Positions 12,135-12,558 are shown, counted from the stretch's first letter. The stretch: 64,000 nt of DNA from an uncultured Alphaproteobacteria bacterium (GCA_944390685.1 CALXQL010000016.1:17408-81407), one strand, 5' to 3'. Notes: a model not told the origin generated them from the letters alone. Program-made: numbers and translations.

Positions 12135-12219
12135 GCGATCGTGGCGAAATTGGTAGACGCGCAGTGTTGAGGTCGCTGTGGGGTATCCCGTGGAAGTTCA
12201 AGTCTTCTCGATCGCACCA
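12135..12219 (+). tRNA. tRNA-Leu (anticodon GAG), long-variable-arm type
   Basis: Acceptor GCGATCG, anticodon stem CAGTG/CGCTG, loop TTGAGGT, long variable arm, T-loop GTTCAAGT and a CCA end. Confidence 0.85.
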
Positions 12220-12558
12220 GTTTTTTCCTAACTTTTTTTCCTTTTGAGATTGTGGAAGTTCAAGTGTCCTCGTGATAAATCGCTCGTTCGTCCCGTAAGG
12301 TTCAACTGCGGATTTCATCCTTGTTTCACCAACTATCGACTCCTTCTCGATCGCACCAGTTTTTTCCTAACTTTTTTTCCTTTTGAATTTGTGGAGGTTC
12401 AAGTGTTCTCGCGATAAATCGCTCGTTCGTCCCGTAAGGTACAACTGCGGATTACATACTTGTTACACCAACTATCGACTCCTTCTCAATCGCACCAATC
12501 TTTTCCTTACTTTTTTCCTTTTGAGATTGTGGAAGTTCAAGTGTCCTCGCGATAAATC
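12208..12558. repeat. 139-bp direct tandem repeat, about 2.5 copies (12208-12346, 12347-12485, 12486-~12558); each unit contains degenerate copies of the tRNA-Leu T-arm/acceptor 3' end (TCGATCGCACCA)
   Basis: The period of 139 bp was read directly from the sequence. The first unit begins inside the tRNA-Leu 3' end. Confidence 0.8.

Follow-up and report, generated by a model that had tools for sequence, protein, structure and literature searches.

A 139-bp tandem repeat built partly from the end of a tRNA gene, and lying directly downstream of that gene, raises the question of whether it is the debris of departed mobile elements or something that resides there. The array in question follows a tRNA-Leu gene in the window, i.e., the whole 64-kb stretch of DNA analysed here, and the preliminary description of the locus took its repeats for att-site duplications left by integrative elements. 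Such duplications in tRNA genes are reportedly made by elements that bear an integrase, as Reiter in 1989 and Williams in 2002 are said to have described. Overall, the att-repeat reading proved partly right. The reading that we favour, with a probability of about one half, sees in the 139-bp repeat a small non-coding cassette, arrayed in tandem, that lives at tRNA 3′ ends.

The tandem array at tRNA-Leu

The tRNA-Leu(GAG) gene (12135–12219, plus strand; ARAGORN, Rfam) is intact, with its CCA encoded, and its last 16 nt (12204–12219) are the first copy of a boundary repeat, B. This 16-mer, CTTCTCGATCGCACCA, comprises the 3′ strand of the T-stem, the 3′ strand of the acceptor, the discriminator and CCA; it recurs at 12343 and, with one mismatch, at 12482. 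A T-arm-like 21-mer lies within the tRNA at 12190 and again at 12252, 12391 and 12529. TRF delimits the array at 12204–12558 (139-bp period, 2.6 copies, 91% matches), and its head-to-tail units are 85–100% identical, depending on the segment compared. In dinucleotide-preserving shuffles the 21-mer was absent and no shuffle contained more than one copy of the 16-mer, let alone three, and the GC content of the array (41–43%) compares with 17–30% around it and 28.7% in the window. ARAGORN, Rfam, TRF and the shuffles thus confirm the array as it had been described, in coordinates as well as in sequence.

Each unit runs from B through a spacer S1 (31–32 nt) and a partial tRNA copy A′ to a core X, and the next B follows directly after X, so that the whole can be written as tRNA(...A B) S1 A′ X B S1 A′ X B S1 A′ X(1–16), unique DNA. 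In the first unit (all features of the array are on the plus strand), a T-rich 32-nt S1 (12220–12251) leads to A′ (12252–12265), GTGGAAGTTCAAGT, an exact 14-nt copy of tRNA-Leu that spans the last two nucleotides of the variable region, the 5′ strand of the T-stem and the T-loop. The 77-nt core follows at 12266–12342, with a covariance-model match of 100.6 bits, an alignment and pair counts as its basis. The second unit consists of B (12343–12358, again CTTCTCGATCGCACCA), S1 (12359–12390), an A′ with one substitution (12391–12404, GTGGAGGTTCAAGT) and a second core (12405–12481, 96.6 bits), and the third of the mismatched B (12482–12497, CTTCTCAATCGCACCA), the most diverged spacer (12498–12528, 31 nt), A′ (12529–12542) and a core truncated to its first 16 nt (12543–12558, GTCCTCGCGATAAATC), after which unique DNA begins. 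What had been called a second, degenerate T-arm copy does contain a T-arm copy, but it is made up of the exact 14-nt T-stem 5′ strand and T-loop together with the first 7 nt of X. As the next B abuts X, X is placed at the 60/61 joint of a partial second tRNA copy.

Upstream of tRNA-Leu, a promoter-like site (TTGATT-17-TATAAT, 12095–12123, plus strand) could drive read-through transcription into the array, and an rpmF promoter candidate with an upstream TG (TTGTAA-16-TATTAT, 12598–12625, plus strand) lies beyond it. Both come from consensus scans for promoters and terminators, whose hits were not enriched over shuffles, and for this reason the upstream site is given as a candidate only. No terminator was predicted between tRNA-Leu and rpmF. 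DNA from ~12590 onwards is conserved in relatives that lack the array, which sets the right limit of the variable region.

Strain contigs were collected by exact-sequence look-up of the adjacent L32 protein, which gave 14 contigs, the best 10 of the 14 being, by appearance, the same species. One of these, a 365-kb scaffold (L001), carries one full unit and the same 16-nt stump, i.e., 1.55 units against 2.55 in the window; with one unit fewer, it shows that copy number varies, and the expectation that array length differs between strains is borne out. The stump of X ends the array in all strain contigs. A second scaffold (L002) has a gap within the array and seven strain contigs start inside it, which indicates that the repeat breaks assemblies; at the tRNA-Leu locus the array therefore interrupts metagenome assemblies and doubles as a copy-number marker of strains. 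In contig L004, the match to the window breaks off exactly at the CCA in the third B copy; this junction is an assembly chimera or else marks foreign DNA inserted at a pseudo-att site. Its positions 1–2295 (~2.3 kb, ~40% GC), joined to the array at window position 12497, hold an HSP20 gene and small ORFs.

The divergent neighbour of tRNA-Leu is tRNA-Arg(TCT) (11949–12025, minus strand; ARAGORN; Rfam tRNA model, 64 bits), whose 3′ end points toward a strain-variable sugar cluster and is the border of an indel relative to L001. A 7.3-kb block (4628–11948) that abuts this 3′ end is absent from L001, and it encodes a cytidylyltransferase, a phosphomannomutase, a GDP-mannose 4,6-dehydratase, a cupin, an epimerase, two GT8 glycosyltransferases and an FAD oxidoreductase; neither an att-like repeat nor an integrase was seen at its borders. 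The proposal that the array and tRNA-Arg mark the end of the sugar cluster agrees with this comparison, as together they bound the strain-variable 7.3 kb. Within the block, the first GT8 protein ends in a lysine/isoleucine-rich C-terminus encoded by a 60-bp tandem repeat of 2.5 copies (9297–9444; FNFIPLLKIKNK-type repeats), and the second GT8 glycosyltransferase has a similar tail.

Relatives with 74–84% PlsX identity have other genes or a tRNA-Thr upstream of rpmF and, lacking the synteny of the window, were rejected as empty-site comparators for its tRNA-Leu locus. Two contigs from a relative with 82% PlsX identity (L032, positions 1–60, and L033, positions 1–40) begin ~130–150 bp upstream of the conserved rpmF promoter, and the start of L032 is a sequence ending in ...GCTCCGCCACACCA that resembles a tRNA 3′ end, which suggests a further repeat or tRNA junction at the same place. 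Elsewhere in the window, four paralogous predicted lipoproteins without a Pfam match (16015–16980, 17408–18214, 50899–51678 and, on the minus strand, 53667–54557) share 5′ and upstream repeats of 100–540 bp (15841–15997, 17013–17401, 50502–51039, 53564–53661 and 54582–54734). A gene for a surface-lipoprotein assembly modifier (Slam, PF04575; 49100–50491) lies near this family, whose members may, given that proximity, be Slam-dependent surface lipoproteins.

Filled and empty sites at other tRNA genes

When one genome for each of 185,579 species (GTDB) was searched with a 20-mer of X that contains no tRNA-derived sequence, two other contigs matched, both from metagenome-assembled genomes and each with one copy. 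In the first (L011), X follows tRNA-Phe(GAA): the tRNA gene is succeeded by a 44-nt trailer with an intrinsic terminator, TCGGCGGTTGATT, X, CCGCCCCTCGCCACCA and the trailer again, where TCGGCGGTTGATT is the T-arm half and CCGCCCCTCGCCACCA the 3′ end of tRNA-Phe, and where A′ has suffered small deletions. In the second (L012), X follows tRNA-Ser(GCU), and the order is tRNA, 46 nt, GGTTCGAGT, X, CCTGTACCCTCCGCCAC. Over its first 35 nt X is identical in the three lineages, and a single position varies among its last 14 nt; its borders are the same to the nucleotide, and its flanks are in each case those of the local tRNA. No random remnant of a deletion would give a near-identical X with the same borders at three tRNAs. 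X forms a discrete module, and the cassette is present at three different tRNAs.

Across loci, A′ measures 9–19 nt, the core 77–78 nt and B 16–17 nt. The 4 nt to the left of X differ (AAGT, GATT, GAGT), and the duplicated target segment is 16, ~24 and ~61 nt long at the three loci, of which the trailer accounts for ~8 nt at the tRNA-Ser loci and ~45 nt in L011. A weak inverted pair, CGATA...TATCG, lies near the ends of X, and homology between the S1 spacer of the window and the spacers of the tRNA-Ser loci was not significant (p ~0.07–0.7). Within the 64 kb X occurs nowhere outside the array, and the covariance model found no other copy in 178 kb of sequence from the loci. With X confined to the array in the window and to a single copy per contig in each GTDB match, MITE-like dispersal was not seen in these sequences. 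Every core copy found sits at a tRNA 3′ end, and the generic dispersed repeat considered in the preliminary description is thus not what was observed. In L011 (3364–7439), the genes immediately after ftsZ encode a T7-type head-tail connector (portal) and a terminase-like protein, and this cluster, next to a core gene of cell division, has the look of phage-derived DNA.

PlsX homologues are named as Alphaproteobacteria or Rickettsiales bacterium, one relative being from a human gut sample, and the gene order rpmF-plsX-fabH-ihf-merR is one that we take to fit alphaproteobacteria. The ‘Bacteroidales’ label of L012 is probably due to mis-binning, because its NUDIX homologues bear alphaproteobacterial names, and on the same names a spread of X across phyla was rejected. 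The carriers of X so far are probably one clade of low-GC, gut-associated alphaproteobacteria.

Presence and absence could be compared at the tRNA-Ser locus, for which contigs of relatives were collected via homologues of the NUDIX gene that adjoins the L012 copy. The site is filled in L012, L039 and L043, with spacers that are homologous but diverged, and empty in L045 (flanks 92–94% identical to L012), L044 (~85%) and L035–38 (73–81%). At empty sites the tRNA is followed by ~20–30 nt and the NUDIX start codon, with a single tRNA end and no scar, whereas filled sites hold an insert of ~150 bp bounded by a ~24-nt repeat, CCTGTACCCTCCGCCAC[A/G]AAAAAT. The cassette is inserted DNA with direct repeats of the tRNA end as its borders, and some close relatives have it while others do not. 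This patchy presence implies several gains or precise losses. In L043, A′ (GGTTCGAGT) differs from the T-loop of its own tRNA (TTCGAAT), indicating that A′ is inherited with the cassette and not continually recopied from the tRNA. The tRNA-Ser spacers also keep a promoter-like TTTACA...TAAACT site, for which the evidence is weak.

These comparisons bear on the simplest account of the array, an ordinary variable-number repeat that arose by slippage duplication 3′ of tRNA-Leu and has neither mobility nor function. It fits the head-to-tail units and the difference in copy number between strains, but it does not account for finding X in other genomes at two further tRNAs, for sites being filled in some relatives and empty in others, or for the selective constraint on X described below, and it is scarcely credible.

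Conservation and predicted folding of the core

The alignment of X comprises seven sequence variants from three loci, probably all of one clade, and has 53 invariant columns. An invariant 33-nt block that contains a small hairpin is followed by a three-tier hairpin of 32–33 nt and an invariant 12-nt block. Both hairpins, the small one having the form GCGA-NNNN-TCGC, are predicted in all variants, and the three-tier hairpin is the minimum-free-energy fold in all of them except window copy 2 on the plus strand. Under the stated structure 86.6% of cells pair, compared with 30–41% when partner columns are slid. Changes on both sides of a pair occur in six cells, a number reached by 1 of 500 shuffles, and between L012 and L039 there are three double compensatory changes in a manual register, two of which also appear in the column-based count.

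X has a GC content of ~50%, compared with 29–37% in the host genomes. Exceptional folding stability was not seen on either strand (z-scores +0.8 to −1.9). On the minus strand, folding is better by ~3–6 kcal/mol and both hairpins contain tandem G.A mismatches; of the G.U-type substitutions, one favours each strand. The second core of the window differs from the first by two transitions and by four clustered changes to A in the hairpin. The latter place A before C (in three cases TTCA has become TACA, in one TCC has become TAC), set copy 2 apart also from the copies in L001 and L002 in strains that are otherwise 99.9% identical, and include two that turn pyrimidine mismatches into pairs, which would be G.U pairs on the minus strand.

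Among orthologous tRNA-Ser copies, flanking non-coding DNA diverges by 19–32% and the X hairpin by 27–42%, whereas the other 45 nt of X diverge by 2–7% (flanks vs. non-hairpin X, Fisher p 0.001–0.009). As its invariant blocks evolve more slowly than the flanks, X looks selected and not like a decaying scar. The core is under purifying selection, and its hairpin is kept through compensatory changes.

This difference in rate touches the reading of the repeats as scars, in which they would be attL/attR-type remains of successive integrase-bearing islands or prophages at tRNA-Leu, since deleted, with debris in between. tRNA genes are common integration sites of integrase elements, where partial 3′ copies are left (overview in PMC9897764), Ms6 uses an attB in a T-loop (PMC1762012), tandem 3′-end repeats are known at the tmRNA gene ssrA of Dehalococcoides (PMC3146451), and a strain-variable sugar cluster adjoins the array. 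Integrase-made duplications and the cassette also have in common that one end is an intact tRNA and the opposite end its partial 3′ copy, that the repeat runs from T-arm to CCA, and that empty sites occur in relatives. The att reading stands insofar as the tRNA 3′-end repeats act as boundaries of inserted DNA, the core being flanked alike at tRNA-Phe and tRNA-Ser and the tRNA-Ser site being empty in related genomes; it fails insofar as it makes them the scars of a lost island. The same 77 nt recur with identical borders at two other tRNAs in other genomes, X evolves several-fold more slowly than its flanks, and the unit is a non-coding segment of ~125–150 bp (123 bp between the boundary repeats of the window) with no gene and no integrase nearby. 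Moreover, the tRNA-identical block is split by X at 60/61 at all three tRNAs, unlike a normal attR, and the integrase or phage remnant that would accompany such an island was found nowhere in the 64-kb window. Scars are therefore a very improbable explanation.

Cis-mobilizable elements (CIMEs) are kilobase-sized deletion derivatives with recognisable parents. The cassette resembles them, and accretion arrays, in that att sites would be kept while recombination genes are lost, in tandem build-up at one site and in its presumed dependence on an enzyme in trans; it differs in having no known parent element and a unit of about the size of an attP (CIMEs are named in PMC5704250, and the tandem ssrA repeats of Dehalococcoides in PMC3146451).

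Possible routes of insertion and possible roles

The 77-nt folded core is apparently undescribed. With Rfam 15, searched on both strands, only the two tRNAs pass, and matches over X reach at most 23 bits, far below gathering scores. X was not found in scans of IMG/VR, in either of two scans of JGI metagenomes or by BLAST against plasmids and phages. A 25-nt match on a Rhizobium plasmid was set aside for want of any other feature of X, as were 18-mer matches on 14 viral contigs of IMG/VR (L014–L027), all of which are GC-rich phage protein coding sequence and unrelated. The phage proteins concerned form a family with long alanine-rich repeats (~AAADAAAYAA, derived from nucleotide repeats) and a conserved C-terminus, ...RDKSLADFAE...QWL, and the 18-nt string that they have in common with X is a coincidence of coding. 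Translations of X in its frames gave nothing at E ≤ 10 against a protein database; although a frame is open, the variable part changes as a hairpin does and gene callers call no ORF, and X as a protein was rejected.

Pfam searches of the ORFs tested across the 64-kb window detected no integrase, transposase, HUH enzyme or reverse transcriptase, nor any TnpA or TnpB, and those near X in L011 and L012 detected no integrase, transposase or reverse transcriptase. An enzyme for insertion is not encoded in the window. An integron attC was rejected since the 5′ arm fits RYYYAAC only in some variants and the 3′ arm reads GTTTCAC, GTTTTGC, GTTTAGC or GTTTAAA, not GTTRRRY; ends of the IS200/IS605 or PATE type were rejected on the differing 4-mers of the left flank and the missing TnpA and TnpB, even though hairpins are present. 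An integrase with a T-loop crossover does not suit the right end of X, which is unlike T-stem and T-loop, and for a serine recombinase no shared central dinucleotide fits both junctions.

To our knowledge, no mechanism gives A′-X-B with an intact upstream tRNA in one step. Four models of insertion were considered, each of which fits some facts and fails others: a mini attP, in which an attP-only element would have B as its core and X and spacer as its arms; insertion at 60/61, with the tRNA presumably rescued by unequal exchange; a retro-type route with template jumping; and the insertion of a single strand in the manner of IS200/IS605. A reading that we hold to be possible, if rather unlikely, is that X serves for recognition in a selfish, non-autonomous DNA element, moved by a recombinase or transposase encoded elsewhere. 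This enzyme would be a tyrosine integrase that targets tRNA genes and recognises a mini attP, or one of the HUH or integron type that works on single-stranded DNA in folded form. The tRNA-end repeats would then be an att core or a target duplication, the array would have grown by accretion of successive insertions, and conservation would serve mobility rather than the host; occasional transfer may suffice to keep such an element conserved.

Direct repeats that are exactly the tRNA 3′ end, scar-free empty sites, three different tRNA targets, patchiness among relatives, tandem copies at one tRNA and a GC content above that of the host are all as expected of such a selfish element. So are conserved ends around a hairpin whose sequence varies while its structure is kept, as in attC or the ends of IS200/IS605, and attC, IS200/IS605 ends and PATEs likewise combine short conserved blocks around a drifting paired hairpin with orientation-specific insertion. 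However, no gene for an integrase, transposase, HUH enzyme or reverse transcriptase lies in the 64-kb window or the flanks examined, and as far as visible there is one locus per genome, with no further copy in 178 kb and none of the multi-copy dispersal of those systems. The joined ends of X are unlike a T-arm att site, its arms miss the R″/R′ of attC, and the 4 nt on its left vary, so that a conserved target tetranucleotide is lacking. Finally, the tRNA-Ser spacer diverges at a neutral rate while X is fixed, which suits a long vertical descent of an X that functions where it is, whereas an idle non-autonomous element should decay.

The retro-type route would have an RNA of X, probably of minus sense, reverse-transcribed from a tRNA 3′ end as primer or from a nick where the tRNA gene ends; template jumping between the 16-nt repeats would yield head-to-tail multimers, and a premature stop the stump. 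Consistent with this, the boundary repeat equals the last 16–17 nt of the tRNA, as does the complement of the primer-binding site in retroviruses, and the truncated end of the array lies on the side that would be 5′ in a minus-sense RNA. The variable A′ (9–19 nt) and trailer duplication (~8 nt at tRNA-Ser, ~45 nt in L011) are of the kind left by target-primed events, and the A′ of L011 has small deletions. Site-specific elements co-transcribed with a host gene are known, i.e., R2 and its non-autonomous derivatives (PMC3414825), and these share with the cassette an insertion at an exact position in an essential RNA gene, co-transcription and host sequence at the ends. R2-type elements are, however, eukaryotic and dependent on a reverse transcriptase, whereas the window encodes none and the host gene is regenerated by duplication. 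As the route also predicts a contiguous A′B rather than X between the two, and as the copy number is very low, we rate it as quite improbable.

A resident, non-coding cassette at tRNA 3′ ends, the reading that we favour, is composed of a short, locus-specific spacer, the A′ copy and the core, closed by a copy of the tRNA end, with the upstream tRNA left intact. Recombination or slippage between the 16–24-nt repeats would suffice for growth and shrinkage of the array and for clean losses. New loci would arise by rare insertion of X at the junction of T-loop and T-stem, the tRNA being regenerated by duplication of its 3′ part. Conservation in apparently vertical descent, together with covariation in the hairpin, suggests that the core functions where it is and does so as a folded single strand, which would most simply and most likely be RNA. 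The putative RNA could be transcribed by read-through from the tRNA promoter or, at the tRNA-Ser loci, from the promoter-like site in the spacer; the intrinsic terminator between tRNA-Phe and X argues against simple read-through in L011. Its tRNA-derived flanks would give such an RNA a tRNA-like 3′ end.

A precedent for an RNA of this kind is 3′ETS-leuZ of E. coli, a small RNA from a tRNA trailer. By analogy, a functional RNA could ride downstream of tRNA-Leu and be freed by tRNA processing; 3′ETS-leuZ is not known as a mobile cassette or to have flanks of tRNA fragments, nor is it known to have any sequence in common with X. An unlikely but further-reaching version of these ideas is that non-coding elements directed at tRNAs make up a class not yet described, with X as their core, and are either guide-like RNAs or mobile elements. 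As a guide, a minus-strand RNA may, to judge from base complementarity, pair through its arms with nt 61–76 and ~47–60 of the neighbouring tRNA, and the structured core may thereby lie over the 60/61 phosphodiester in a layout analogous to that of a guide RNA or a trans-acting ribozyme. As a mobile element, it may be based on RNA or single-stranded DNA, insert at 60/61 and rescue the gene via duplication of its 3′ part.

tRNA genes are classic landing sites of mobile DNA, and partial copies of them are usually taken for the ‘footprint’ of a large element. In this case, what the ‘footprint’ surrounds is a tiny structured module, maintained by selection, at the same position of three tRNAs. An X that acts as RNA would be a new non-coding RNA, linked to tRNA genes, in host-associated alphaproteobacteria; should X be a mobile element of DNA or RNA, it would be an unusually small one, with a tRNA-specific insertion chemistry of an unfamiliar kind.
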